Source of the DNA: an uncultured Bacteroidales bacterium | GTDB lineage: Bacteria > Bacteroidota > Bacteroidia > Bacteroidales > GCA-2748055 | NCBI GenBank assembly: GCA_963771005.1 | Contig: CAVYRO010000002.1 | Coordinates: 1,550,299-1,614,298, forward strand | DNA: 64,000 nt | Direction: 5' to 3' | Part shown: in pieces, positions 3,451 through 61,633 of the stretch | Layout: each line of letters starts with the position of its first letter | Position numbering within the stretch: position 1 is the first letter of the stretch | Made by a program: the position numbers and the translations under genes | Notes under the pieces: model-generated | What the model saw: the letters and a program-made list of their open reading frames with translations, nothing else | Databases searched by the model: none | What the model was told of the DNA's origin: nothing

Positions 3451-3532
3451 CGTTCGTAAGGTTAATTTATCGATAGAGATGATAAAAATATTCAATTAAT
3501 TTAAATTAATCACCCAAAACCTGCGTTTAATT

Positions 3533-3780
3533 CGGTTGTTTGAAATGGTTTGAGATGGTTTGATATGGTTTCAGGGAGTTTAACCACAGATTACACAGAT
3601 TATCACAGAAAAAGCTGTTCCAGATTGTTTGAAATGGTTTGAGGTTGTTTGAAATGGTTTCAGGTGGTTTCAGGTGGTTTCAACTCCATTCAACAAATCA
3701 ACAAGTCAACAAATCAACAAATCAACAAATTCTTCCGTGTTCCTCTTCCTCTTCACCAAATCACCAAATCACCAAATTTG
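3533..3780. repeat. composite microsatellite block (10-bp GTTTGARATG units, CACAGATTA units, 8-bp TCAACAAA units, 8-bp CACCAAAT units); inverted copy of 49938-50171
   Basis: The tandem units were read directly. The reverse complement of 3533-3610 matches 50038-50100 (ctgtgataatctgtgtaatctgtggttaaac..cctgaaacca). The reverse complement of 3730-3780 matches 49938-50000 (tttggtga...gaagaggaagaggaacac). Confidence 0.8.
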
Positions 3781-4399: not shown

Positions 4400-6826
4400 C
4401 TATTCCTGTTCTCCCGCCTTTCCCGGAGGTATAAATTTCATGGTGAACTCTCTGTGTTCTTTCACCCCGCTATCCGAAAAATAATCTGTTTTGTATCCGT
4501 AAGCCAGGTATTTTTCCGTCTGGCTGCAATAGAAGGGACTAGCTGGTATCCCGGAGATCCCGGTCGGAAGAATGACCTGCGATCTGTCCCAGTCGCCCGC
4601 CACAAAAATATGCCGGTGCGATGAGCCAAAATCGGCTCTGAAGAGATCGGTTTTCGGATAGGAATACGGGCTGACAGTATGATAGCTTCCTCCCACAGGG
4701 AATGGACCCTTGTTCAGGCCGAAGATCCCGCTTAACAATTTCACTTTTCCCAGCGGGTGTTTAAGTGTAAGGGTATGCACCTCTCCCCATTCCCATTCCT
4801 GCATATCCTTTCCCAGTCGTTTCTGCAGTTTATATACGGTGCTGTCGATGGCAGTGATGGCTACATCACAAGCTGTTTCGGTCTTTCCGGGTGTACTAAC
4901 ATTGTCGAACCAGACTGACCGGCCAGTATGTCTTATTTTGTCGATAAGGTATTCAGCCAGGAGATCCTGATCCAAAAGGCTTTTATACAGTTCGTCACCC
5001 AGTTCATCATAAAACATGGCGTGCAGGAATTCAACATAAAACTGTTCAAATATTGTCGATGCCACGCTGGCTGTTCCCATGTCGTAGTCCCAGGTCCGAA
5101 GGATATGCATAGCTCTCTGGACTTCTTCAGGCTGACTACCGATACGGGCTGTCATCACCGAATCAAAGAATGGCACCAGTTTCCCTGCCCAAATTGAATT
5201 CTGGTTTGACTGTATATCCTTGAAATCCCTTACAGTGAGTTTTTCTTTTGAAGACAGGCCTTCAACAATACGTTCAAAGCGGTTGGGGAGGTCAAACCAG
5301 CGACTGATGTAATAGGGATAATCATCACCCACAGTCCTGTTGTTAGCCGAGGCCAGATAGCCCGATTCCGGGTTGTAACTGTAGGGCAGCCTCTCAAAGG
5401 GAACGATACCCTTCCAGTCATATTCTGTGGTATCACCCGGAACGATGAATATTCCCTTTCCGGATCGAACCGGAATTCCGGCAGCCGTTTGCAGGCCGAT
5501 ATTCCCTTCCCGGTCGGCATAAACGATATTCTGGCTGATCGCGATGAAGGAGGAAGCCGCCTTTCTGAAATCCTGCCAGTTCTTCATCCTGTTGAAGCCG
5601 TAGACAGATTCGATCTCATTGCTGTATTCATTCCCGATCCATCTCATAGAGATAACCTTGTCATCTATCCCCTTAAATTTTGAAATGACAGGCCCCCTGT
5701 GTGTGAACAGGTTGTATACGATGACGGAATCCCCGCCACTGACACGGATCACTTCTTTCTCAACCCTGAAATCTTTCCATTCACCATTGAGCCTGTATTT
5801 TGTAGTATCATCAGGGTTCACGGTTTCGAGATAAAAATCCATATCATCAAGCATCACATTGGTCATTCCCCAGGCCACATCTTCATTGTGACCGCAAATG
5901 ACAAAGGGTGCACCAGGCAACACCACACCTGCCACATCAACCTTTCCGGGTACTTTTTGCTGCATCTGGTACCAGATACCCGGTGCATTCAGCTCCAGGT
6001 GCATATCATTTGCCATGAGGGCATGGCCGTTAGCACTTCTCCCGGCTGAAACGGCCCAGTTATTAGAGCCAAGAAACACTCCCAGGCCCAAATCCCTGAT
6101 CTTCCTGTCGGCCGCTTCCAGTCCGGATATTGCTTCCAGGCCGTGTTTTTCCATGAATTGCGGAAAGATCACGGACTGCTGCATGGAAAGGTCTGGTACC
6201 AGCTCCGCAAAATGTGCATTATCCACACCCTGCCCTATTTTGTAAAGGTTGATCTCGGCACTCCATGCCATCGTCAGTCCCCAGGCCATATACCCTATGA
6301 GATTGGCGGAATGCTGGGGCTCCCATTTATCCGGCTTGTAACCCAGGATTGTGAATTCAGGCGGCAGGCTGCCGGAGTGATCGTCAATATACTGGTTAAT
6401 GCCTTCGGAAAAGGCTTGCAGACAGGCAAGAACCTCCTCATTCGTTGAGTCAAGAACCATAGCGGATTTCTGGCTGAAGTGAAGAGATCTGAACAGCTGA
6501 TCAACATTTACCAGGCTGGGACCAAACAACTCGGAAAGCCGGCCTTGCGTGAGTCTCCGCAGCAGATCCATCTGCCACAGACGGTCCTCTGCCATCAGGT
6601 ACCCTACAGTGCGGTAAAGATCATCCTCATTTTCTGCAAAAACATGGGGCATGGCAGTACTGTCCCGGAATACGGTCACTTCCCCGGAAAGACCGCCGAG
6701 CGTTATATTTTTATTATAATCCGGAAGCGCCCGGTGTGAGATCCTTTTCACAAGGATTATCCCGGCAATCGACGAGATGCCGGTAAGGATCGCAAGAGTG
6801 AGAAAAATTAATTTTACAGCTCTCAT
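4400..6826 (-). CDS. penicillin acylase family (Ntn-hydrolase, peptidase S45) protein
   Basis: 808 aa with a signal/anchor. GSNNWAVSAGRSANGHALMANDMHL contains the Ser-Asn-x-Trp nucleophile region typical of penicillin/AHL acylases. Confidence 0.8.
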   Translation of the reverse strand: MRAVKLIFLTLAILTGISSIAGIILVKRISHRALPDYNKNITLGGLSGEVTVFRDSTAMPHVFAENEDDLYRTVGYLMAEDRLWQMDLLRRLTQGRLSELFGPSLVNVDQLFRSLHFSQKSAMVLDSTNEEVLACLQAFSEGINQYIDDHSGSLPPEFTILGYKPDKWEPQHSANLIGYMAWGLTMAWSAEINLYKIGQGVDNAHFAELVPDLSMQQSVIFPQFMEKHGLEAISGLEAADRKIRDLGLGVFLGSNNWAVSAGRSANGHALMANDMHLELNAPGIWYQMQQKVPGKVDVAGVVLPGAPFVICGHNEDVAWGMTNVMLDDMDFYLETVNPDDTTKYRLNGEWKDFRVEKEVIRVSGGDSVIVYNLFTHRGPVISKFKGIDDKVISMRWIGNEYSNEIESVYGFNRMKNWQDFRKAASSFIAISQNIVYADREGNIGLQTAAGIPVRSGKGIFIVPGDTTEYDWKGIVPFERLPYSYNPESGYLASANNRTVGDDYPYYISRWFDLPNRFERIVEGLSSKEKLTVRDFKDIQSNQNSIWAGKLVPFFDSVMTARIGSQPEEVQRAMHILRTWDYDMGTASVASTIFEQFYVEFLHAMFYDELGDELYKSLLDQDLLAEYLIDKIRHTGRSVWFDNVSTPGKTETACDVAITAIDSTVYKLQKRLGKDMQEWEWGEVHTLTLKHPLGKVKLLSGIFGLNKGPFPVGGSYHTVSPYSYPKTDLFRADFGSSHRHIFVAGDWDRSQVILPTGISGIPASPFYCSQTEKYLAYGYKTDYFSDSGVKEHREFTMKFIPPGKAGEQE

Positions 6827-12897: not shown

Positions 12898-13791
12898 ATG
12901 ATCAAATTGATAATACCTCTCTTCCTGATCTTCACATTCTCTGCATGCAGGCCCCGGCCTGATTTCGATCCTGCGGTTTATAAGAAAGATATGGAAGAAT
13001 GGAAGGCCAATCGCCTGCAAAGACTGAAAAGTCCCGAAGGATGGCTTAATCTGGCCGGGTTGTACTGGCTCCGTGAAGGGGTGAACACCCTGGGTTCCGA
13101 CTCTGCCATGGATATTGTATTTCCGCAGGGCGCACCCGCTGCCGCCGGCAAGATCATCTTGAAGGGGGATAATCTTTTCTATGTACCCTCGCGGGGAATT
13201 CCGGTGACGATCAATGATAAGCAGGCCGGGGATTCTGTGAAGCTCAGAACGGACGCCTCGGACAAACCGACAATCATGAAGGCGGGTTCATTTGCCTGGT
13301 TCATCATTCAGCGGGGGGACCGTTACGGGATCCGGCTACGGAATTACAAAAATGTGCGGATCACAGAACTTACGCAGATCCCCTCGTTTCCCGTATCTCC
13401 GGAATGGAGAATTCCAGCAGAATATGTTCGCTTTAAGAGGGATAGTATTTTTGAGGTTCCGACTATGATCGGCGGAACCGAAAAATACAAATGCCCGGGT
13501 AAGCTGGTGTTCACCATAGGATCTGTTAAAACGGAACTCTTTCCTTTCAGTGAGGGGAATGAATTTTTTATCATTTTCGGTGACCGTACCAGCGGCAGGG
13601 AGACCTACCCGGCCGGACGTTTTCTTTATACTCCGAAACCCGGAAGGCATGATCATGTTATCCTTGATTTTAACAAGGCATACAATCCTCCGTGTGCCTT
13701 CAGTCCCTATGCCACCTGTCCACTCCCCCCGCCGCAGAACCGGTTAAAAGTGGCTATAATGGCAGGTGAAAAAAATGTGCACACGGAGTGA
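12898..13791 (+). CDS. DUF1684 domain protein (lipoprotein)
   Basis: LDFNKAYNPPCAFSPYATCPLPPPQNRLKVAIMAGEK is the signature C-terminus of DUF1684. A lipobox-like FSAC is present. Confidence 0.7.
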   Translation: MIKLIIPLFLIFTFSACRPRPDFDPAVYKKDMEEWKANRLQRLKSPEGWLNLAGLYWLREGVNTLGSDSAMDIVFPQGAPAAAGKIILKGDNLFYVPSRGIPVTINDKQAGDSVKLRTDASDKPTIMKAGSFAWFIIQRGDRYGIRLRNYKNVRITELTQIPSFPVSPEWRIPAEYVRFKRDSIFEVPTMIGGTEKYKCPGKLVFTIGSVKTELFPFSEGNEFFIIFGDRTSGRETYPAGRFLYTPKPGRHDHVILDFNKAYNPPCAFSPYATCPLPPPQNRLKVAIMAGEKNVHTE

Positions 13792-13794
13792 AGA

Positions 13795-13950
13795 ATTTGG
13801 TGATTTGGTGATTTGGTGATTTGGTGAGGGAGAAGAATTCTCAGAATGGATTGATTGATTGATTTGGTGATTTGGTGATTTGGTGATTTGGTGATTGAGA
13901 AGAACTCTCAGAATAGATTGAATGGTTGGTTGATTTGTTGATTGAGAATA
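13795..13950. repeat. microsatellite block (ATTTGGTG x n, GATT x n), same family as 3533-3780
   Basis: tttggtgatttggtgatttggtgatttggtga occurs twice, each followed by ..agaa(t/c)tctcagaat(g/a)gattga. Confidence 0.75.
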
Positions 13951-14934: not shown

Positions 14935-15060
14935 GGGGAATGACCATCATTGCAGGGGAATGACCATCTGGCAGGGGATTGACCATCGTGGCGGGGGAAT
15001 GACCATCGTGGCGGGGGAATGACAATCATTGCAGGGGATTGACAATCATTGCAGGGGATT
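14935..15060. repeat. tandem repeat, about 6 copies of a 20-bp unit (GGGGAATGACCATCATTGCA)
   Basis: The units were read directly and are slightly degenerate. There are no unique spacers. Confidence 0.85.
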
Positions 15061-15070
15061 GTGCGAATTA

Positions 15071-28294: not shown

Positions 28295-28321
28295 ATTCAG
28301 TATCAGATTAAATAACAAATT

Positions 28322-28376
28322 GTTTACAGGAGTCATCAGCCGTTACTGACGGTTAATGGCAGACCCCATTGCCGGT
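28322..28376 (-). promoter_or_regulatory. fluoride riboswitch (crcB RNA motif)
   Basis: The minus strand reads CCGGCAAUGGGGUCUGCCAUUAACCGUCAGUAACGGCUGAUGACUCCUGUAAAC. It has the P1 helix GGCA/UGCC, the P3 helix CCGU/ACGG, the conserved CUGAUG and a pseudoknot GGGGUC/GACUCC. It aligns position for position with the Thermotoga fluoride riboswitch as I recall it. It lies directly 5' of crcB. Confidence 0.8.
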
Positions 28377-28606
28377 TTGCAAAGATAGGAAAGATTTGGG
28401 AAATGGGGAGGTGAGGGGGGATTATGGATGGTTAGAGCCAAAACGAATTAGAGACGCATTTGAAAAAGTACCGATTTCAGGGAAATTGTTAAAGAATTTT
28501 TCAGGATTGTTCAGGCAAGACAGCATGGCCTGGAATTCGATAGAAGTCATAATTGTGTATAGCTTTAAAAGTCATATCTCTATAAGGCCATATATGCAAT
28601 TTTATT

Positions 28607-31130: not shown

Positions 31131-31250
31131 GCATGCGACGTCTCCGCACGCGGTAAAGACGTTGCAATGCAACGTCTCTACATAAGGTAAAGACGTTGCA
31201 TGCAACGTCTCTACATACGGTAAAGACGTTGCATGCAACGTCTCTACATG
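31131..31250. repeat. tandem REP-like array, 3.5 copies of a 33-bp unit containing the palindrome GACGTTGCATGCAACGTC
   Basis: ggtaaagacgttgca(a)tgcaacgtctctaca occurs three times, plus a partial copy. The array overlaps the stop of the upstream minus-strand gene by a few bases and runs downstream of it. Confidence 0.85.
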
Positions 31251-49937: not shown

Positions 49938-50171
49938 AATTTGGTGATATGGTGATATGGTGATATGGTGATTTGGTGAAGTGGAAGAGGAAGAGGAACA
50001 CAGATTTGACGGATTTGTGCGGATAATCACGGAGCTAATCTGTGATAATCTGTGTAATCTGTGGTTAAACTTCCTGAAACCACTTCAAACCATTTCAAAC
50101 CACTTCAAACCATCTCAAACTATCTCAAACCACTTCAAACCATTTCAAACCACTTCAAACCATCTCAAACC
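49938..50171. repeat. composite microsatellite block, inverted copy of 3533-3780
   Basis: (TGGTGATA/T)n, gaagaggaagaggaacac, aatctgtg units and (AAACCAYYTC)n, in the mirror order of the 3.5-kb copy. Confidence 0.8.
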
Positions 50172-50184
50172 TTCCCCCGAAAAA

Positions 50185-51408
50185 TTACCTGCTTGCAAGC
50201 TCCCCCTCCACAACCTCATCCGTAGCATTATGATCCCTGTAATCGAAATACAGGTTAAGGAATGCCGGCACACTCACTGAAGCAGCTTTGCAGGGAGAAT
50301 TGGTCAGAAAAACGATGCCTACGTTTTCATCCTGGCAGAGGGCAATCTCCGACTTGTACCCGTCCACATATCCTGCATGATAGGCGACATTGCGTCCCTT
50401 ATAGCCGATGATCCGCCAACCGATAGCGTACTGTTTGGAATCGACATGATCCCAGTAACGCAGGTATGTCCAGGGAAGGGGTGTCCTGATCTGTGGCATA
50501 AGTACCGAATCGAGAACATCATGAAAGGTAACTTTATCAAGAATGGCACAAAGGAAATGAGCCATATCAGAAATACTTGCATTTACGCCGGCAGCAGGAA
50601 GGCAATTATAGTACCTGTCATTCAGCGGAAGGGATTTGTATCCTCCTCCTGACAAGTAATGCGGATAGGCTTTATCCGGGTTGTCTCTGAAGGATATGAA
50701 ACCTGTGGAAGCATTGACCATACCGAAAGGCTGAAATACCTTTTCACTGATCAGGGTTCCAAAATCTTCGGAAGTTTCAATTGAGCTGATGGTATCGAAG
50801 AGGCTGAACATGACATTCTGGTAGCTGTAAATCTCGCCCGGAGGAGCTGACAGTGTAACCCGGGAGAGGCTGTCCATGATCACATTAAAAGGAATATGTT
50901 CCTCAACCAGGTTGTCATAGGCATGAGGAACAAGTCCGGAGGTATGGCTGAGAAGATTCCGTATGGTCAGATGATTTGTATTTACTGAATCTTTAAGTCT
51001 GAACCCGGGCAGGACATCCTTGACACCCTTATTCAGATCGAGGATTCCCTGGCTTGAGAGGATCCCGGCAAGTACTCCGGTCACAGTTTTTGAAACCGAA
51101 CCCAGTCTGAAAATCGTACTGGCGTCAACCGGATCATTTTCGCCTTCTTTTCTCACTCCGTAGCATCTGAGGAACGCGATCTGGCCCTTATAAATGACGG
51201 CAACGGCAGCACCTACCGTTCCGGAAAGCTCTATTTCGCGAGTTATCAGGCTGTCGTATTGCAAAAGCACAGGCCGGATCTCAGCCAGGATCTTTGCAGG
51301 CATCACCATATCCGCAACCTTCATTTCTTTGGAGTATGGCTGAAGTTTCAGCGCTACAGATGCCAATCCCGTGAATATCAACAGGAAAAAAAAGTATCTT
51401 CGTTTCAT
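50185..51408 (-). CDS. serine hydrolase (beta-lactamase/PBP4*-like, class C fold)
   Basis: FRLGSVSKTVTG is the SxxK motif and YSYQN is the YxN motif. The signal peptide starts at MKRRYFFFLL. Confidence 0.8.
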   Translation of the reverse strand: MKRRYFFFLLIFTGLASVALKLQPYSKEMKVADMVMPAKILAEIRPVLLQYDSLITREIELSGTVGAAVAVIYKGQIAFLRCYGVRKEGENDPVDASTIFRLGSVSKTVTGVLAGILSSQGILDLNKGVKDVLPGFRLKDSVNTNHLTIRNLLSHTSGLVPHAYDNLVEEHIPFNVIMDSLSRVTLSAPPGEIYSYQNVMFSLFDTISSIETSEDFGTLISEKVFQPFGMVNASTGFISFRDNPDKAYPHYLSGGGYKSLPLNDRYYNCLPAAGVNASISDMAHFLCAILDKVTFHDVLDSVLMPQIRTPLPWTYLRYWDHVDSKQYAIGWRIIGYKGRNVAYHAGYVDGYKSEIALCQDENVGIVFLTNSPCKAASVSVPAFLNLYFDYRDHNATDEVVEGELASR

Positions 51409-52570: not shown

Positions 52571-52687
52571 GTGTAATTATATTTTTGGTTAACAAAATAT
52601 TCGATGCGAAGTTTCACAAGCGGTACTTTCAAGAGGTTTACATCGACCGGTTCAACGTCCGAAGCAGATCCGCTCCAGTGCAATTAC

Positions 52688-52924
52688 CTGGTGGCTGAAA
52701 AATTACAACCTGAGGCAGGTGCAGTATAAGGCGATGACCGTTTTTTGAGACTGATGCATGCAGTAGTTACCGCCTACGAAAGCGATGAAGAAGACTATAC
52801 TCTTCCGGGTGCTCCCCTGGATGTGGAAAATTATAAGACCAGGATACGCAAAGCCCGGGAAAGGGTAAAAGCCGGTTATTATACTATACAGGAGGATCTG
52901 GAAAAGGAGATGGAGCAATGGTAA
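52688..52924 (+). pseudogene. decayed antitoxin gene (paralog of 58646-58909) with an in-frame TAA at 52727
   Basis: ..AEKLQPEAGAV*GDDRFLRLMHAVVTAYESDEEDYTLPG...AGYYTIQEDLEKEMEQW aligns in register with ..ALKKELHSYIEKADERFLKMVHALAKSYEDEEDIVGY...SGNYITQEDLEKEIKNW. Confidence 0.45.
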
Positions 52925-53240
52925 AGAAAAATTACAAGGTCATCTGGGAAGATGACGCCAAAGCTTCATTACGCAGGATCTACAATTATATTAAAAAGAA
53001 AGAATCTGTTGATCAGGCGATAAAAGTACGAATGAAATACGCGATCTGGCCAAAAGTCTTGGATTTATGCCCCACAAATATATCAAAGATCCTTTCTTAA
53101 AAGATGAGCTTGGGGATATCCGTTTTAAAGTGATCTGGAGTTACAAAATCGTTTATGAAATCACATCTGATGCCGTCATTATCCTTGATATTTTCCACAC
53201 CAGTCGAGATCCAGGTAACCTGAAGCAAATAAAAAAATAA
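52918..53240 (+). pseudogene. RelE/ParE-family toxin, frameshifted near 53041 (paralog of 58903-59220)
   Basis: MVKKNYKVIWEDDAKASLRRIYNYIKKKESVDQAIKV is followed, in the next frame, by NEIRDLAKSLGFMPHKYIKDPFLKDELGDIRFKVIWSYKIVYEITSDAVIILDIFHTSRDP. It shares the same ATGGTAA overlap with the antitoxin as the intact copy. Confidence 0.6.
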
Positions 53241-53341
53241 GTCCAGTAACACTCCCCTCCTCCAACCCTGCTGCAGTAGTTTTTTGTCATGCCTTTGGCA
53301 GTTGCCTGTTTGCGCCGCCCGGCAGCCGGGACCCCGAATCA

Positions 53342-56300
53342 TTGAACGAACAGATTCAGTATTTTGAAATGGGTCGTTTAAGGCAGGTGGTTCGTGTTAA
53401 GGGCAGCCCTACAGGTGATGATATGATCATGCCGGTGGAATATGATGTATTTGGAAGACAAAGCAAAAACTATTTACCTGTTTCGTATACCTATATTAAC
53501 CCGGGAAGTTATCTGAATAATTATACTGCCGCTCTGGATAACCTTTACAATGGAGGATTCAATATACCGGATGCGGAGGGTTACTACTATAGTGAAACTC
53601 AGTTTGACGGATCTCCCCTGAACCGGGTTGTCGCCCAGTCATCCCCCGGGGCCTCCTGGTCAATGTCAACGGGACACACCGTCGAATATTCGTATTCCAC
53701 GAACCAGGCAAGCACGATCCGTTTATGGTCCATGGACGGGAGTACGGCTACTAGTAACGGATGTTACACCGAAGGTGAATTATACGTAAACACGGTTACC
53801 GACGAGAATGGGAACCCGTCCCGGGTCTATATTGATAAAAAAGGAAGATTGATCGCTAAAGATGACACTCTCTCTGTCAACTATAGAACCTATTACGTCT
53901 ACGACTATTACGGAAGCCTGCGTTATATATTCCCCCCAAAAATGGCAAAGGATTTTGGTACCAGCGGGACCCTCCAATATACTCCTTCCACAACGCTGGT
54001 GGTTGGACTGGCTTTCTACTATCAGTACGACGATATGGGACGGGTTGTAATCGCCCAGGAACCTGGAGCCGGACAGAAATACCTGGTTTATGACCACAGG
54101 GACCGGCTTGTGGCCACTCAAAACGAAGAGGAGAGAAATGACTCAAAATGGTATTGCATAAAGTATGATGCATTGAACCGGCCGGTGATCGAGGGAACTA
54201 TAAATTCCAGTTATAGCCGTGAATCTTTACAGGCTACAGTCGATGCATATAATTTCAGTGAAGATTTTGAGACACTGAATCCTTCACAGGTTAATACATC
54301 GCCAGACTACGGCTACAATGATATTTCCTTTCCCATGGAAATAGAGCCATTAAAGATCTACTATTATGATGATTATTATGATTTTGGAACAAATTACAAT
54401 TACAAGACCAATGAGATGGCCGCTAGCGGCGATAAGTCGTACAAGCTAAAAAATGCGTTGACTGCCACCCGAACAAAAGTTCTTGACGGATCTCTTCCGG
54501 TAACCTGGCTGATCTCGGTTTCTTACTTTGATAATTATGGACGGTTGATTCAAAATATCTCCAACAATCACCTGGGGGGGTATGATATTGTCACCTCGGA
54601 ATACAAGAACACCATCAATAATAACATCACCAGGATCAAGCAGGAACATGGGATAAGCGGAACCACGGTGGATCATACCCTCATGTACCGCTACACGTAT
54701 GATCACACCGGGGGCCGGTTACTGGAATCCTATCTGACCTTTGACCAGGAGGATGAGATCATGCTCTCGGCCTTAAAATACAACAAACTGGGTCAGGTTG
54801 ACGAGAAATACCTGCATGGAGACCTGTCCACCAACAAGGCCATCCAGAAACTCGATTATATTTACAACATACGGGGTTGGCTGAAAAAGATCAATGATGC
54901 CTCGCTGAGCACTCCTGGAGATGTTTTTGGTATGGAACTGCTCTATGATGATTATATCTCAACGCTCGGTTCAAGTGGTGACAAGCAGTACAACGGGAAT
55001 ATTACCGCCATGAAATGGAACACCACTTTGCAAGGCGCCGGACTGGAAGGGTATGAATTCCGGTACGATGGTCTGAACCGGCTAACTTCGGCTAATTACG
55101 GTTACGGGACAAGTTTATCAAATTCCGGCAACCGGTACGGAGTATGGGGTATCACTTATGATGAAAACGGAAATATCCTTACCCTGAAACGAAACTCTGC
55201 AGGATCGCTTATGGATGATCTCACCTATCAGTACGACTCCAGCCTGCCAAACCGTCTTAAATCCGTTGAAGACGACGGGGATGTTAATACGGGATTCAAA
55301 AACCTTTACTCGTCGACAACGGAATATACTTACGACGAAAATGGAAGTATGATACGTGACTATAATAAAGTCAGTGGTTCATCCTATGCCTTGATCTCCT
55401 ATAACCATCACTTTAACCTTCCGGTAAGCGTAACGGTGGACACTAAAACGTTGAGTTATTCCTACGATGCCGGTGGCAAAAAACTAAGATTTAACAACGG
55501 GGATAGTCAGAATGTCGATTATATGAATAACTTTGTTTATGAAGATGGTTCTTTGTCATATATATTAACTTCTGAAGGCAGGATCGTCTATAACTCCGGC
55601 TCGCTCTCCTGGCAGTATTTTCTGAAAGATCACCTGGGCAATGTCAGGGTGGTAATCAATGAAAACCAGGATATCGTTCAGGTGACCGATTATTACCCCT
55701 TTGGTCTTTCCCGGCCGGTTATCGGTGATGGCACCCAGAAATACCTCTACAACGGGAAAGAAATTCAGGAATATGCCGATTGGTACGACTATGGTGCCAG
55801 GATGTATGACCCGGCGCTGGGGAGGTGGCATGTTGCAGATCCGTTGGCGATTAATAGACATAACCTTTCATCTTATAATTATTGTCGCAACAATCCAATT
55901 TTATTTATTGATCCTTTTGGGCTTTCAGACACCACTTATTCACAAGGAGATATAACTAAAAAAAATTATAATTTGCCTGGAGTCGTTCATAAATATGAAT
56001 ATGCATGGCTTAATCGATTTCATGGTGCTGGTGGTCAAGGAAATCCATTTGATGAGGAATTCTGGAGACATTTAGAAGAAGAATGGAGAAGAAATGGACA
56101 AAAAGCTGGTAAAAAAGCGGACAGGGAAAGAGAAGCTGCCATACTTATGCAGAACTGGCAAGATTATAAACACAATTATAATCAGCTTTGGGATATGATC
56201 AATCAAATTCAGAACAATACTGCAAATGTTGCCACAAACGGAGGGGGTGGATATACAATTGATATGCAAAGAATAGCCGAATCACCTGATGGAACTGTAA

Positions 56301-56695
56301 GTTCATTTACAGCATATGGCCCGACTCCTTTACAACCTGTTAGTGGTTATATATTAGAGCCTGGTGGGCCATCAACAACAACTAGAGGTCAAGACAAGAG
56401 AATTCCTGCTGGGACTTACAATGTAGACCCTCTTAGTAGCACAAGTCATCCTAATGTTTACAGAGTTTCAAATGGGCAAGTACCTGCTGACAGGTATATT
56501 TTAATACATACGGGAAATTATCCTTCAAATACTTTAGGTTGTCTTTTACCGGGAAGCTCGTACAGTATGGTAAATGGTAATTATGCAGTATGGAATAGTG
56601 GAACGACCCTTAATTCCTTGCGTTCTTTACTTGGTGGTAATAGTGCAACATTAAATATTTCTGACATTCCGATTTTTAATTTTAATAACTGGTAA
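53342..56695 (+). CDS. Rhs/YD-repeat toxin (DUF6443-type) lacking its normal N-terminus; C-terminal YkuD/L,D-transpeptidase-like (DUF5675-like) domain
   Basis: IQYFEMGRLRQV...PVEYDVFGRQSKNYLP is a DUF6443-type start motif. Many YD repeats follow (YxYDxxGRL/I). The RHS core end is YYPFGL...[22 protein letters not shown]...NNPILFIDPFGL at 55910-55924. The 256-aa CT contains IPAGTYNV...RYILIHTGNYPSNTLGCLLPG. An in-frame stop lies 21 codons upstream of the TTG at 53342. Confidence 0.85.
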   Translation: MNEQIQYFEMGRLRQVVRVKGSPTGDDMIMPVEYDVFGRQSKNYLPVSYTYINPGSYLNNYTAALDNLYNGGFNIPDAEGYYYSETQFDGSPLNRVVAQSSPGASWSMSTGHTVEYSYSTNQASTIRLWSMDGSTATSNGCYTEGELYVNTVTDENGNPSRVYIDKKGRLIAKDDTLSVNYRTYYVYDYYGSLRYIFPPKMAKDFGTSGTLQYTPSTTLVVGLAFYYQYDDMGRVVIAQEPGAGQKYLVYDHRDRLVATQNEEERNDSKWYCIKYDALNRPVIEGTINSSYSRESLQATVDAYNFSEDFETLNPSQVNTSPDYGYNDISFPMEIEPLKIYYYDDYYDFGTNYNYKTNEMAASGDKSYKLKNALTATRTKVLDGSLPVTWLISVSYFDNYGRLIQNISNNHLGGYDIVTSEYKNTINNNITRIKQEHGISGTTVDHTLMYRYTYDHTGGRLLESYLTFDQEDEIMLSALKYNKLGQVDEKYLHGDLSTNKAIQKLDYIYNIRGWLKKINDASLSTPGDVFGMELLYDDYISTLGSSGDKQYNGNITAMKWNTTLQGAGLEGYEFRYDGLNRLTSANYGYGTSLSNSGNRYGVWGITYDENGNILTLKRNSAGSLMDDLTYQYDSSLPNRLKSVEDDGDVNTGFKNLYSSTTEYTYDENGSMIRDYNKVSGSSYALISYNHHFNLPVSVTVDTKTLSYSYDAGGKKLRFNNGDSQNVDYMNNFVYEDGSLSYILTSEGRIVYNSGSLSWQYFLKDHLGNVRVVINENQDIVQVTDYYPFGLSRPVIGDGTQKYLYNGKEIQEYADWYDYGARMYDPALGRWHVADPLAINRHNLSSYNYCRNNPILFIDPFGLSDTTYSQGDITKKNYNLPGVVHKYEYAWLNRFHGAGGQGNPFDEEFWRHLEEEWRRNGQKAGKKADREREAAILMQNWQDYKHNYNQLWDMINQIQNNTANVATNGGGGYTIDMQRIAESPDGTVSSFTAYGPTPLQPVSGYILEPGGPSTTTRGQDKRIPAGTYNVDPLSSTSHPNVYRVSNGQVPADRYILIHTGNYPSNTLGCLLPGSSYSMVNGNYAVWNSGTTLNSLRSLLGGNSATLNISDIPIFNFNNW

Positions 56696-56706: not shown

Positions 56707-57497
56707 ATGAAAAAAATATTATTTATAAGTTTAGTTTCAATATCATTTATACTAAACGGACAAAACTTATAGAAGAGAGTCTCTCAAAAGCAGATGGCGA
56801 AAAAGTTGAATTATCTGAGTTTAATAAAACAAATTACAATAAGGTTTGGATGAAAAATCAAGATGATGTTATAGGTTATATAGGAGATAATTATCAACGA
56901 ATATATATTCACTTAATATCTGTGATTAAAAATCAATTAGTAGATAATGAATACTTTGTATATGGGAAATCAAAGGTTAAAAGCAATGTATGTGATTTTC
57001 AAGGAAAGTTTACAATTACAGATGTGCGTGAATTTAACAAAACAGAGAGGGAAGCTTTATACAAAGAAGCATTAAAACATGGTGACCAAGAAGCTGCCAA
57101 TAAATTAGGGAAAGCACGAGGTTTTGTCTTAGCAGAATACTTTTTATTGGAAAATCCAGAACAAAAAGGGAGTGGCCTTTTTAAAGGAGTTGTAAAATCT
57201 TACTTCTATGTTGATGAAAAAGGCGAATTGTTTTTTGATGACCTAGATTTGGGTTCTAGTGATACTTATTGCAATAATCAATTTGTTGGTGTTTGGCAGA
57301 GTTATTATACTAGGGCGCAAAAACCATGTAATTGGGGGGCATATAGGATACCCAACTCAGGAGATTTAGATATTGGAGCCGGTGAGTTTTCTCCAAACAC
57401 GAAATACTTGGAGAAAGGATGGGATACTTATTATCTGGCATATAATAAATCGGAAAGTGAAGCCCGAAAAGAAGAAAAACTTGAATGGTGGAAATGA
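56707..57497 (+). pseudogene. candidate immunity protein for Rhs-CT1, exported (signal peptide), split by a 1-nt deletion in the A-run at 56761-56766
   Basis: MKKILFISLVSISFILNGQN* is followed in the -1 frame by KLIEESLSKADGEKVELSEFNKTNYNKVWMKNQDD.... It lies immediately downstream of the toxin stop. Confidence 0.45.
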
Positions 57498-57800: not shown

Positions 57801-57872
57801 GTAAGCCTTCGGCCATCTGCATCTTGATTTGATTTGTAATACCGTTTAGCTTTGCCCCCAAAGCATGAATTT

Positions 57873-58169
57873 ATGAAAAAGGAGCAAAGAGAACAACAGC
57901 GGGAGAAGATGTTTTCTCTCATTGAAAAATGGCAGCAAAGCGATCAACCCCAGAAAGACTTTTGCCAGGAACATGGAATTAAGCTTGCCACATTTTACTA
58001 TTGGCAGAAAAAACTCCGAAATCGTAACCATGAAAATCACTCGGGTTTTATACCCATGGAAATATCCTCGTCTGATTCCAGAATAGTCGAGATCCGATAC
58101 CCTAACGGAGTGATCGTTCAGTTGCCAGGACTTGACCTTAGACTCCTGAAGCAACTGGTCCATCTTTAA
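57873..58169 (+). CDS. IS66-family accessory protein TnpA (orf1)-like
   Basis: MKKEQREQQREKMFSLIEKWQQSDQPQKDFCQEHGIKLATFYYWQKKLR is typical of IS66 orf1. Confidence 0.6.
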   Translation: MKKEQREQQREKMFSLIEKWQQSDQPQKDFCQEHGIKLATFYYWQKKLRNRNHENHSGFIPMEISSSDSRIVEIRYPNGVIVQLPGLDLRLLKQLVHL

Positions 58170-58184
58170 ATGTAGCTTTTTCGT

Positions 58185-58457
58185 ATGTTTACCCTTACCT
58201 CATCCTACCGGTATTATTTTTATGCCTGTGCGACGGATATGCGAAAAGGCTTTGACGGATTATGTGGGCTGGTGCACCTAGAGCTGGGGCGCAGACCTGT
58301 AACCGGTGAAGTATTCGTCTTTGTAAACCGTCAGCGTGATAAGATCACCAATGTAGAGCCTTTTGCCTGGTTAAAAAAGGTTCTTACCCTGATCCCTGAT
58401 TACTCAATACAGAAACTGGAGGATCTGCTTCCGGGAAACCTCATTCTATCTGAATAG
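58185..58457 (+). pseudogene. IS66 TnpB (orf2) N-terminus fused to the C-terminal tail of the IS66 transposase (internal deletion)
   Basis: YRYYFYACATDMRKGFDGLCGLV...GEVFVFVNRQRDKI is TnpB-like. It is followed directly by TNVEPFAWLKKVLTLIPDYSIQKLEDLLPGN, a transposase C-terminus. Confidence 0.6.
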
Positions 58458-58645: not shown

Positions 58646-58909
58646 ATGTTACAGGAAATCATGAACACAGCAGCATTAAAAAAAGAGCTTCACAGCTATA
58701 TTGAGAAAGCGGATGAAAGGTTCCTGAAAATGGTTCATGCATTAGCTAAGAGTTATGAGGATGAAGAAGATATTGTTGGTTATGAAGCCGATGGTAGCCC
58801 AATAACAAAGGAAGCCCTTATAAAAGAAGCAAGAGAAGCTTCTGCACAAGTTAAGTCCGGGAATTACATCACCCAGGAAGACCTGGAAAAAGAGATAAAA
58901 AATTGGTAA
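58646..58909 (+). CDS. antitoxin of the RelE/ParE module (intact copy)
   Basis: 87 aa and acidic. It overlaps the toxin start (ATGGTAA-type overlap) and is a paralog of 52688-52924. Confidence 0.55.
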   Translation: MLQEIMNTAALKKELHSYIEKADERFLKMVHALAKSYEDEEDIVGYEADGSPITKEALIKEAREASAQVKSGNYITQEDLEKEIKNW

Positions 58910-59220
58910 GGAAAAAACTTCCCGTTCGATGGTCCCCAAAAGCTAAGCAGAGGCTTGATAATATCTACGACTATATTGCTAAAGACTCAGTAAGTGCGGC
59001 CAGATATGTTAAAAAGTCTCTGGTTCAATTAGGAGGAAGTCTGGGACACTTCCCGGAAAAATACTCCAGAGAAGAATACCTGGCTGATGAACCGAAAAAC
59101 TACCGGTCGGTATCCAAGTGGCGATACAAGATTATTTATGAGGTAACTGACGAGTATGTGAATATCATTACCCTCTTTAATACCAGTCAACATCCTTCCA
59201 AAATAAAAAGAGACAAATAA
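58903..59220 (+). CDS. RelE/ParE-family toxin (intact copy)
   Basis: WSPKAKQRLDNIYDYIAKDS...YRSVSKWRYKIIYEVTDEYVNIITLFNTSQHP is a ParE/RelE pattern. Confidence 0.7.
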   Translation: MVRKKLPVRWSPKAKQRLDNIYDYIAKDSVSAARYVKKSLVQLGGSLGHFPEKYSREEYLADEPKNYRSVSKWRYKIIYEVTDEYVNIITLFNTSQHPSKIKRDK

Positions 59221-59254
59221 ACAATCCCCAGGCCTCCCCACCTCCAACCCTTCT

Positions 59255-59331
59255 GCAGCAGTTTTTTGTCCTGCCTTTTGCAGTTGCCGATTGCGCCGCG
59301 CATGGCAAAAGGCACGCCAAAAAACTGCTGC
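59255..59331. other. long imperfect hairpin conserved after both TA modules (only the left arm is present at 53256-53318)
   Basis: gcagcagttttttg pairs with ccaaaaaactgctgc. Inside it, tgccttttgc pairs with gcaaaaggca. Confidence 0.55.
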
Positions 59332-59696
59332 CCCGGGCAACGGCACATAATGTGTCCGTATATGCAACCCTCCGCTAAAAATAAGCTCCTACTTCCAACC
59401 GATATTTTTTCTTTTAACTGAAAACCCTCCCTGTAACGATGGGGCTGCACATACGGGAACATTATGTACCATTGCCACACCCGCCCCCACGCACGCCGAC
59501 CCTGCGCAGGCGGCACATTGCCAGGCCCCGCAAGGCCATACCCGCAGGGACCTAGAGCCTGTCAAAGAGCCGCCTGCCGGCCGGAAGACCCGCAAGCAGC
59601 ACCGGCAAAAGCAAGCCATCGCGCTAATGCCCTCCCCGGATTGCTTTTACCGGAGCTGCCGCGGAGAAATTACCTTCGAACCTGGATTAATCGCTT

Positions 59697-59909
59697 CATT
59701 TTAACCACTTAGAGCAAAGGTAAAGCCACCGGCCATACCCGCGCAAGGTCAAGCCCGTTGGGTTTTGGAGAAAAAATTTTATGTCGGTTTAACCGGGGAT
59801 AATCCAGGAAACGAAGATCCCTGATGCTAACGAAACCTGTAAAAATTTTTTCACCAAAAACCTTGCCTGCCCCCGCTGGCTTTGGAGGTTGCCTAAGTGG
59901 TTAAAAATG
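59697..59909. promoter_or_regulatory. inverted-repeat-flanked 180-bp segment (candidate invertible promoter or closing helix of a structured RNA)
   Basis: The left IR is cattttaaccacttagagcaa (59697-59717). The right IR, reverse-complemented, is catttttaaccacttaggcaa (59889-59909). The core 12-mer is perfect. A TACCTTTG (TAnnTTTG) box lies on the minus strand at 59715-59722, just inside the left IR. Confidence 0.3.
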
Positions 59910-60046
59910 CAGTGTTCTGTTCAAATAATCCGGGAAAGGAACGGAAGTTTTTTCTTTTAATTGAGATAACTGAAAACGGAAAACTTTTTCAGCTAAAGAC
60001 TTCAATTAAAAGAAAAAATCGCTACTTTCGAGTAATAATAAACTTT

Positions 60047-61047
60047 ATGGGTTGCCTGAAACTTGCACGTAACGAAAAAAATGAACCTGTTTTGAGGTGC
60101 GTCTGGAAATCTTCCGGATGTTCAAAAATGGGCGTAAATTGGTATGATTACGGGGCCCGGATGTATGACCCGGCGCTGGGGAGGTGGCATGTCGCGGATC
60201 CATTGGCATTAAATGGTCATAGCCTGTCACCTTATAATTATTGCTTTAACAATCCGATCAATATGATTGATCTCTTGGACTGTGGCCTGGAGGTGGGAAT
60301 AACCGCCGTCATCCAACACTGGGATATAGGGGCTGTCATGGTGGCAAAAGTCGGCTTGGTGTCTTAGTTGATGGCGTTGGTGATTTTTTTAGTAAAGTGG
60401 GTAATACCATCAGTAGTAGTTTAGGTGGAGAAACGGATGGTGAATTTGGTTGGGGCAATATGGGATCTGAATTAATTGGTGGAGGATGGGCAGAACAACA
60501 ATTAGATCAAGCACTTTTATCAGCCCATTCGGAAGGGGAGAAAGAGGGTATAGCTGAAGATGCTCGAAGAACGGTTGAAACTCTAACTCGCAATGTGGGA
60601 GTTTATTATTATAAAAGGGATGAATTAAATAATCTGTTTCAGGGAATTGAAGATAATGCCAGTTCGGGAGGGGCTGGAGGAGACTTATCAAGTATGGGAG
60701 ATAATCCGCCAGACCACCCAGAATATAAAACGCCTAAAGGTGGAGATAGAAAAGTTAGAAATCCAAATGGAAAGGGGTCTGGTTGGATTGATAATAAAGG
60801 ACGAGTTTGGGTGCCAACTGACCACAAAGGAACACATGCTCCACATTGGGATAGGGAACTACCTGGCGGAGGGCACGAAAATGTATATCCATATATGAAT
60901 CCAGGTTTTAGTATTACTCCTGAGGATGTCTTAAGAGGATTAGTGATCGTAGGAGGTGCAGCAATAATTATTTTTGATATAGTAACGATACCCTCTGGGG
61001 AAGGTATGATTGGCGTTGAAATGATAAGAAGAGCTGTTGCTCCTTAA
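60047..61047 (+). pseudogene. orphan Rhs C-terminal cassette 2: core-end remnant plus toxin domain with G-W-x-D..W-x-P..H-x-P-H-W-D motif; 1-nt deletion near 60272
   Basis: MGCLKL...[45 protein letters not shown] is followed in the next frame by (P)LGLWPGGG...KGSGWIDNKGRVWVPTDHKGTHAPHWDRELPGGGHENVYP. A 30-nt run is identical to the main rhs gene (ggatgtatgacccggcgctggggaggtggcatgt). Confidence 0.6.
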
Positions 61048-61057
61048 ATTATGTGAT

Positions 61058-61633
61058 ATGATGAAATTTATAGAAAATTTTGAAGAATTGCTCCCCTATA
61101 ATAGGGAGCATTATATTGATTTTCTAGATGATGATTTTGATGCAGAGACAAAATGGTGTGCTGTTTCGCTTCAAATAAACAGTGAGAATGGAGAAACTAG
61201 TTTGTCCAAGTTTGTTGATGTTTTTGGATTGATTTTTAAGAATGTAGTATTAAAGCTTGACAACGGAGTTTCTTGGATTATAAACCATGATGATAAAGAC
61301 ATGAACTGGTTTCTTAATGACAAGGATAATTTAGAAGCTTTAAGAACCGTATTTAAAATAAATAATGTTCAAGATACTTTTAAGGGCTCGTTGATTCTTG
61401 AGAAAGAAAATCTATTAGAATTAGCACAGGATTTAATTTCATACCCATATGTTTTATCCTATAAGAATTTAGATATTTCACATAGTAAATTACAGTTTAT
61501 AATAAAAATAACCAGTCATTTGACTATTGATTTGTTGAGTACGGATAAAGAAGTTCTAAGAAAAATTGTTAAAGAAAACAGTTCTAGCAAAATCATAATA
61601 AAAGAATACAGAGGTACTTCACTTTGGACTTAG
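61058..61633 (+). CDS. candidate cytoplasmic immunity protein for cassette 2
   Basis: It begins 11 nt after the toxin stop, has no signal peptide and is acidic. A terminator follows it. Confidence 0.45.
   Translation: MMKFIENFEELLPYNREHYIDFLDDDFDAETKWCAVSLQINSENGETSLSKFVDVFGLIFKNVVLKLDNGVSWIINHDDKDMNWFLNDKDNLEALRTVFKINNVQDTFKGSLILEKENLLELAQDLISYPYVLSYKNLDISHSKLQFIIKITSHLTIDLLSTDKEVLRKIVKENSSSKIIIKEYRGTSLWT

Follow-up and report, generated by a model that had tools for sequence, protein, structure and literature searches.

The window analysed here is a 64,000-nucleotide (nt) stretch of DNA from an uncultured Bacteroidales bacterium (GenBank GCA_963771005.1, contig CAVYRO010000002.1, positions 1,550,299 to 1,614,298). 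The part of concern includes: (i) a large RHS open reading frame (ORF) and a putative immunity ORF, (ii) an IS66 remnant, (iii) an antitoxin-like ORF paired with a ParE-family toxin, (iv) a long non-coding leader, and (v) an orphan RHS toxin cassette (cassette 2), whose ATG a first-pass annotation, made from the sequence alone, placed correctly at 60047. Within the leader, a pair of inverted repeats was taken by that annotation to bound a candidate invertible promoter. The repeats are instead the basal helix (P1) of a 213-nt imperfect hairpin with a three-way junction, and the hairpin is tentatively proposed to act as a promoter in single-stranded DNA. The parts of the hairpin are as follows, with the strand given where one applies.

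59697-59909: whole 213-nt imperfect hairpin (P1, internal loop, P2, P3, side hairpin, P4 and variable apex)
59697-59717: left repeat arm, 5' strand of P1, with a perfect core at 59699-59712
59889-59909: right repeat arm, 3' strand of P1, with a perfect core at 59893-59906; invariant in five loci
59715-59722, minus strand: -7 box TACCTTTG, a match to TAnnTTTG, 21 nt from the hairpin base
59722-59732 with 59873-59883: helix P2
59743-59749 with 59860-59866: helix P3
59744-59748, minus strand: -33-like TTG within CCTTG, 21 nt upstream of the -7 box and inside the paired helix P3
59753-59763: side hairpin GCCC-GTT-GGGT at the three-way junction, on the left arm only
59763-59780 with 59842-59859: A/T-rich helix P4
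59781-59841: variable apex, above P4

The inverted repeats are present as first described, with CATTTTAACCACTTAGAGCAA at 59697-59717, a partner at 59889-59909 whose reverse complement is CATTTTTAACCACTTAGGCAA, and one single-base indel on each side of the core. The perfect core is likewise real, though it spans 14 nt rather than the 12 originally given (59699-59712 with 59893-59906). The perfect 14-nt arms are spaced by 180 nt, the arms reach 21 nt when the indels are included, and the 14-mer of the core is single-copy in the window. First-order Markov simulations of the window (perfect 14-nt pairs, loops of 3-300) give an expectation of 0.13 perfect 14-nt inverted pairs per 64 kb vs 76 such k-mer pairs in the real sequence; thus, inverted repeats are frequent here for biological reasons. 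The first-pass annotation missed the nested complementarity inside the repeats, in which 59722-59732 pairs with 59873-59883 and 59760-59780 with 59842-59862. Thus, the whole of 59697-59909 is one long imperfect hairpin. Its fold z-score is -6.3 for minus-strand DNA, with a fold of -48.9 kcal/mol, and -5.7 and -4.8 for RNA of the plus and the minus strand, respectively. The minus-strand folds are more stable than the plus-strand folds, yet the z-scores are similar, and the energies do not decide the strand. Of the alternative once offered, that the repeats close a structured RNA, the structural part holds, and the folded molecule may be RNA or single-stranded DNA.

Relatives of the locus were collected from the contigs of the orphan-ORF family (short ORFs that start MGCLKLAH.E.NEP.LRCVWKS.... 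and then diverge), from one genome scan and from one metagenome scan, yielding about 30 loci that are cited by number (L002, L003 and so on). Homologues of the hairpin are found in 16 independent assemblies of five diverged lineages, including the window type; the others are L024, L009/L010/L018, L029/L030/L032 and L036-38. Synteny of the hairpin is kept across lineages diverged to about 70% identity, and every homologue shares a common architecture of an outer helix, an internal loop, a short helix, a CAAGG/CCTTG helix, a side hairpin GCCC-NNN-GGG, an A/T-rich helix and a variable apex. Wherever a lineage has P4, the side hairpin is confined to the left arm, and its closing pair is G-T in 5/5 aligned sequences. 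The orientation is the same in all 16 assemblies, with the box and side hairpin on the arm distal to the cassette. Among the loci that align with the window leader, the hairpin is complete and about 94-97% identical in L002 and L006, and the homology of L006 begins exactly at the left base (59696). L003-5 are missing 59771-59877 through a deletion between 10-nt direct repeats, L007 retains the right arm only, and the homology of L008 and L011 begins at the proximal hairpin, the last module before the ATG. The right arm and the next 150 nt are invariant in five loci.

Covariation was assessed in an alignment of five sequences from four lineages, in which the apex was replaced by GAAA and the L009 type was left out, because MAFFT misaligned the outer helices in a five-lineage alignment. 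Paired cells make up 89.7% of this alignment vs 75.5% in shuffles, a value that none of 500 shuffles reach. Compensatory changes, with both sides altered, are detected in 22 of 49 pairs vs 9.4 expected (again reached by 0/500 shuffles), and partner-slid controls give 4-15 pairs. The outer helix, formed by the repeats of the first-pass annotation, is among the covarying helices. Its sequence is different in all five lineages, with the pairing retained, and the associated recombinases are 59-80% identical. The data fit a pairing that is itself the selected feature, with a promoter on one arm.

The promoter box on the minus strand is borne out, as are the CTTG upstream of it and the direction in which it points. 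TACCTTTG (59722-59715) fits the Bacteroidota -7 box TAnnTTTG, the CTTG is found 21 nt upstream as part of CCTTG (59748-59744), and the box faces away from the toxin cassettes, as it does in the relatives. Promoters of sigma-ABfr have the consensus TAnnTTTG at -7 and TTTG at -33 (PMC7366714). Within 59150-60100, TACCTTTG is the sole TAnnTTTG on either strand, and no plus-strand TAnnTTTG is found in the window leader; the motif is generally not rare, with a background of 34 per 64 kb on both strands (~0.5 per kb). The centre of the box is in a conserved internal loop, where it faces GGAGG (59884-59888), and the box straddles this loop in all five lineages. The minus-strand sequences at the equivalent structural position are TACCTTTG (window lineage), TATGTTTG (L024), TATCTTTG (L029 and L036) and TACCTTGG (L009 and L018). 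TAnnTTTG is, thus, kept in 4/5 diverged lineages, and among these exact matches only the two free nn positions differ. In four lineages, helix P3 (CAAGG/CCTTG) contains a TTG that is 19-22 nt upstream of the box; the upstream element of L029 is, in a by-eye reading, CTTTA at N19 only. The recurrent pattern of the minus strand is CCTTG-N19-22-TAnnTTTG (-33/-7). The distance from the -7 box to the hairpin base is 19-24 nt in all lineages, although the sequence of P1 differs, and an A/T-rich helix lies upstream of the -33 box. Given this fixed distance and the A/T-rich helix, each arm covers roughly -60 to +20, the region contacted by polymerase. As judged from sequence, the comparison strengthens the case for the box as a putative promoter. 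A separate observation concerns the right-arm loop that faces the -7 box, which is TGGAGG in the window and CTGGTGG, the core of the Escherichia coli Chi sequence, in L024 (2363-2369), L009 (3196-3202) and L036 (6512-6518).

The genes and leader modules around the hairpin are as follows.

52581-52733, plus strand: XerC/D-like tyrosine recombinase remnant, 52% identical to residues 239-290 of the L006 recombinase (E = 6e-10)
52745-53240: second, decayed ParD/ParE-like toxin-antitoxin pair with a broken toxin frame, between the recombinase remnant and the half copy of hairpin A
53252-53318, plus strand: half of leader hairpin A, duplicated with 90% identity to 59234-59299 and abutting the large RHS ORF
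53342-56695: large RHS ORF (DUF6443 ... DUF5675)
56850-57497: putative immunity ORF, between the large RHS ORF and the IS66 remnant
57852-58457, plus strand: IS66 remnant, with an Orf1-like ORF and an Orf2 N-terminus fused to an IS66 transposase C-terminal element; this is the site of the recombinase in relatives
58646-58909, plus strand: antitoxin-like ORF, paired with the ParE-family toxin; the pair is directly 5' of the leader
58903-59220, plus strand: ParE-family toxin, which ends at the leader start
59221-60046, plus strand: non-coding leader of 826 nt between the ParE-like stop codon and the orphan ATG, a modular chain of hairpins
59253-59333, plus strand: leader hairpin A, a leader module
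59404-59422, plus strand: copy 1 of the T-rich motif, a leader module
59506-59577 and 59596-59659, plus strand: GC-rich hairpins, leader modules
59948-60018, plus strand: proximal hairpin TTTTTTCTTTTAATTGA / TCAATTAAAAGAAAAAA, a perfect 17 bp (arms 59948-59964 and 60002-60018), 28 nt 5' of the ATG
60047-60367, plus strand: orphan RHS core-end stub (MGCLKL...) of cassette 2
60397-61047, plus strand: Ntox37 toxin part, in a different frame from the RHS stub
61037-61633, plus strand: putative immunity ORF, 3' of the Ntox37 part

The statement that the window has no invertase gene is correct for an intact gene, but overlooks the tyrosine recombinase remnant of about 50 residues at 52581-52733, 7 kb from the hairpin. 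No recombinase is found among ten ORFs near the RHS genes at 41-52 kb. In the related loci, a homologous XerC/D-like recombinase is co-oriented and 0.1-2.7 kb upstream in most of those with enough upstream DNA (L006, L009, L018, L022, L024, L026, L027, L029, L032 and L036-38); L003, L016 and L034 have no recombinase hit, while L007, similarly to the window, has remnants only. The recombinases score as XerC/D-like, below the family cut-offs. Their family is large, with hits on the same multi-megabase contigs, which suggests several copies per genome. A recombinase profile scan of viral contigs found no relative. In some loci, small variable genes occur between recombinase and leader, including a toxin-antitoxin-like pair, Fic with a RelB-like ORF, YhcG, and a 180-aa ORF in L024.

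The context in L006 and L036-38 is one in which a unit of helix-turn-helix (HTH) protein, DnaG/Toprim primase, recombinase A, recombinase B, leader, toxin tip and immunity gene is sometimes arranged in tandem. A primase together with two recombinases points to a mobile unit and to nothing more. The sequences of L036 and L037 match fully as far as the WYDYG codons and diverge after them, the exchange point being ~700 nt downstream of the hairpin; thus, it is in the RHS core end, rather than at the hairpin, that recombination exchanges the cassettes. L037 also repeats its 8.1-kb unit, and L036 is then followed by a copy with a ~390-nt stretch that aligns at 66% identity. The unit in the window is decayed. 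With its recombinase reduced to a remnant, and with IS66 debris present, the hairpin of the window is probably not a working switch but a recent relic.

The reading favoured here, if tentatively, is of a conserved DNA hairpin that has the repeats as its basal helix, bears a promoter of the Bacteroidota -33/-7 type and acts like the Frpo/ssi elements of conjugative plasmids. In Frpo, the promoter boxes are rebuilt by the stem-loop, from which leading-region genes are transcribed on single-stranded DNA (PMC9849209), and the genes driven in this way include toxin-antitoxin genes (PMC11541004). By analogy, the minus strand of the mobile unit would become single-stranded, e.g., during transfer or replication, and would fold such that the complement of the left arm serves as the non-template strand (the 3' arm, with the A/T-rich helix, CCTTG, N21 and TACCTTTG), while the complement of the right arm (the 5' arm of the folded minus strand) serves as the template. 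RNA polymerase would start inside P1, run from apex to base and exit through the hairpin base along the minus strand. The predicted product is a plus-sense RNA that extends from about 59895 over the right arm and a 150-nt untranslated region into the toxin-tip/immunity cassette. The folded minus strand is the template of the cassette and immunity genes, since these are encoded on the plus strand. In the duplex form, the same boxes face away from the cassette, as the first-pass annotation had seen. The parts of the hairpin may match the contacts of the polymerase: the A/T-rich helix at the upstream end, a duplex -33 box, a -7 box that is in part unpaired, and some 20 bp of duplex downstream.

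At the sequence level, the hairpin has several of the attributes by which Frpo/ssi elements are known, i.e., a stable long stem-loop, boxes on the 3' arm that read from apex to base, and downstream genes that are templated by the folded strand. It resembles the Frpo/ssi elements of F and ColIb-P9, and the RNA-polymerase-dependent single-strand origins found on rolling-circle plasmids, in being a long, imperfect stem-loop (a few hundred nt) with host promoter boxes on one arm. The A/T-rich helix is likewise towards the apex, the element adjoins toxin-antitoxin genes on mobile DNA, and the boxes do not serve the downstream genes when in duplex (PMC9849209, PMC11541004). Unlike Frpo/ssi, the boxes are of the Bacteroidota -33/-7 type and not -35/-10, sequence homology is lacking, and an RHS toxin tip and immunity gene take the place of anti-defence genes as cargo. 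No Bacteroidota example is found in two papers on Frpo (PMC11541004, PMC9849209), and the string 'Bacteroid' does not occur in PMC11541004. On the F plasmid itself (NC_002483, L039), the Frpo2 region upstream of ssb (6165-6643) folds into a hairpin of about 330 nt, the apex helix of which (AAAATTTTTTACC / GGTAAAAAATTTT) resembles helix P4 of the window (AAAATTTTTTCACC / GGAGAAAAAATTTT).

Several points weigh against a single-stranded-DNA promoter. While the hairpin, its covariation, the conserved boxes with their geometry, the fixed orientation and the mobile-element context are observed, the single-stranded stage, polymerase recognition and the start site are inferred. No relaxase or oriT is seen in the 6-11 kb related loci, and blastn of 59230-59930 finds no match in 72,556 plasmids or 50,697 phages. 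The -35/-10 boxes of F Frpo2 are not located by a simple consensus scan; thus, the geometric argument is based on first principles, with no worked control. Of the promoter parts, the -33 element is weak (CTTG, not TTTG), a stretch between P2 and P3 is unpaired, and a plus-strand TAnnTTTG is found beside the ATG in L024, L029 and L032. The wobble counts show no strand preference, with nine G-T (plus) vs six A-C (minus), and five of the nine are one invariant G-T. Template switching can, in addition, maintain the complementarity of quasi-palindrome arms in the absence of selection. Several recombinase-linked leaders (L022, L026, L027, L028 and L016) have no long hairpin, and L003 and L007 have lost part of it; the hairpin is, therefore, dispensable.

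Of the other explanations, a structured leader RNA survives best, although it is judged rather unlikely. The hairpin would here form in plus-strand read-through from the recombinase or toxin-antitoxin genes and control processing, stability or read-through, with the minus-strand boxes being coincidental or a fixed leftward duplex promoter for antisense transcription or interference. All genes are co-oriented, so read-through is plausible, and covariation in the stems together with conservation of loops and junctions is what a functional RNA usually shows. Conserved hairpins also make up the chain that is the remaining leader (hairpin A, the GC-rich hairpins and the proximal hairpin), and the closing pair of the side hairpin is an invariant G-U on the plus strand that would be A-C on the minus; the wobble pairs overall, however, have no strand bias. 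Rfam 15 gives no relevant match in the window, in 59200-60200 (even at E up to 10, with chance hits to microRNA models only) or in 12 related loci. A leader RNA also leaves unexplained a loop match to TAnnTTTG that varies only at its free positions, a TTG 19-22 nt upstream, and a box that is always about 20 bp from the base. That a loop would match the 8-nt promoter consensus of the phylum by accident is improbable.

The hairpin may also be a recombination site for the associated tyrosine recombinases, either folded as are attI and attC or used for integration of the mobile unit; this possibility is improbable. The recombinase association is strong, the leader is mosaic with several breakpoints at hairpin bases (L006 at 59696, L008 at 59948 and L018 some 12 nt past the hairpin), and the T-rich motif is duplicated on either side of the hairpin block (59404-59422 and 59948-59964). 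Structure is conserved more than sequence, as in attC, and the rAID-1 arrays of Bacteroidales are described with integron-like intergenic repeats (Ross et al., bioRxiv 10.1101/471110). Yet the hairpin is present in one copy per array and not per cassette, no core sequence is conserved at its base across lineages, and the promoter boxes are left unexplained. The exchange point of L036 and L037, inside the WYDYG codons about 700 nt downstream, is that of ordinary RHS-type homologous recombination. Integrons share with these loci an imperfect hairpin that keeps its structure while sequence and length vary, a tyrosine recombinase and promoterless cassettes. By contrast, the hairpin is much longer (130-215 nt) than attC, carries promoter boxes and has no consistent R'/R'' consensus. 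Membership in the integron attC class is rejected, as there is a single hairpin per locus instead of one per cassette.

A true invertible promoter, as first proposed, is not supported and appears slightly less probable still than a recombination site. In this scheme, a trans-acting tyrosine recombinase flips 59718-59888 and aims the promoter at the cassette. Bacteroidales invertons have a co-oriented invertase gene upstream, and their OFF state is often dominant (PMC8748976). The resemblance to such promoters includes the repeat length and 180-bp spacing (normal segments are about 100-750 bp), the conserved -33/-7 promoter near one repeat, and the intact, co-oriented XerC/D-like tyrosine recombinase directly upstream in relatives, which may act as an invertase or as an integrase; the several recombinase copies that are suggested per genome make a trans-acting copy possible. 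However, all 16 assemblies of the five lineages share one 'OFF' orientation, and the interior is self-complementary and paired along its full length, with covarying helices inside the repeats, neither of which inversion needs. The repeats of known invertons are similar across classes (PMC8748976), whereas the repeat sequence here is not conserved between lineages whose recombinases are 59-80% identical, and the outer helix is broken into perfect runs of 5-9 bp in three lineages. The local recombinase is, in turn, a degenerate 50-residue remnant. Even if the single-strand reading fails, an inverted repeat, a promoter box and a nearby recombinase would still be insufficient to call an inverton.

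A functionless palindrome, accidental or like a miniature inverted-repeat transposable element (MITE), is very improbable: several lineages dispense with the hairpin and others have lost part of it, and the L003 deletion between 10-nt direct repeats is typical of palindrome instability, but the hairpin is single-copy in the window, its exact repeat pair is found in only one other genome of 185,579 species representatives, it is syntenic across lineages at about 70% identity with covariation, and no target-site duplication is present at its ends. A MITE or Correia-like repeat is rejected on this copy number (one in 64 kb and one further locus in the 185,579 species genomes).

The setting of the hairpin resembles that of rAID-1 or polyimmunity arrays. 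Polyimmunity loci adjoin XerC/D recombinases (Zhang et al. 2012, PMC3482391), and how recombinase-associated toxin/immunity arrays are formed and expressed is stated to be unknown (PMC12247911). Similarly to these arrays, the loci have an XerC/D-like tyrosine recombinase at the 5' end, followed by co-oriented short toxin-fragment or immunity genes. At least two co-oriented downstream genes with conserved intergenic motifs are part of the rAID-1 definition; here, the toxin-antitoxin, toxin-tip and immunity genes are co-oriented, and the T-rich/A-rich hairpin recurs before cassettes. The definition of rAID-1 also asks for a 5' XerD-like recombinase at least 44% identical to the defining BF9343_RS08045; the likeness of the present loci is one of layout. 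Unlike rAID-1, the units often include a primase and second recombinase, and the cassettes retain the end of the RHS core as a stub that starts from an ATG of its own (MGCLKL...). Two papers on such arrays (bioRxiv 10.1101/471110, PMC12247911) describe intergenic motifs and no such hairpin or promoter, and the terms 'hairpin' and 'inverted repeat' do not occur in PMC12247911. A covarying promoter-bearing hairpin in recombinase-linked RHS toxin-tip units appears to be undescribed.

In its full form, the proposal is of a first Bacteroidota single-stranded-DNA promoter, in which a hairpin carried by widespread units of primase and two recombinases would rebuild a sigma-ABfr -33/-7 promoter and switch on RHS toxin-tip/immunity cargo as the unit enters or replicates single-stranded. 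This broader claim is possible and remains doubtful. If true, rAID-like arrays would gain a defined regulatory element, the Frpo principle would no longer be limited to sigma-70 promoters or to plasmids, and expression of immunity/toxin cargo by incoming elements before second-strand synthesis would be suggested. Recombinase-associated toxin/immunity arrays are abundant in Bacteroidales, and the hairpin between recombinase and first cassette is a concrete element that can be mutated and assayed.

The long hairpin is one module of leaders that range from 0.3 to 1.3 kb across the family and are mosaic across relatives. The proximal hairpin is nearly universal in the cassette family and pairs a T-rich strand with an A-rich stretch just before the ATG. 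In the window, the T-rich 17-19-mer is duplicated around a 540-bp hairpin-bearing block (59404-59422, 59948-59964), and both copies are able to pair with the A-rich 60001-60019. The same duplication is noted in L007, L009 and L018, while L036 has one copy within the hairpin apex. A 23-nt exact copy of the leader T-rich motif (as in L009), too long for chance, occurs within the primase ORF of L036/L037 (2385-2407). L018 has an 820-bp insertion (2105-2926) between the long and proximal hairpins with an apparent small hydrophobic ORF at about 2640-2900, as read by eye. The position 5' of the leader is also occupied by a ParE-family toxin pair in L007 and by a similar pair of two small ORFs, known by gene layout alone, in L018.

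Orphan cassette 2 is split over two frames, with the RHS core end at 60047-60367 and Ntox37 at 60397-61047, and many members of the orphan family are likewise short (69-180 residues). The segment 52581-53318 holds the start of the unit a second time, in decayed form, right in front of the large RHS ORF. This ORF (53342-56695) begins at position 23 of the DUF6443 profile with a TTG start right after the half hairpin, and is probably 5'-truncated rather than a complete toxin gene.

Elsewhere in the window, 10-bp tandem-unit arrays (AAACCAYTTC, inverse GAAATGGTTT) are located at 50047-50186 and 3526-3700, 46 kb apart and in opposite orientation, and further short tandem arrays are found at 13786-13919, 49938-50004, 14935-15067 and 31133-31232. 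A fluoride riboswitch (crcB motif) is present on the minus strand at 28320-28382, with 49.3 bits vs a gathering score of 34.

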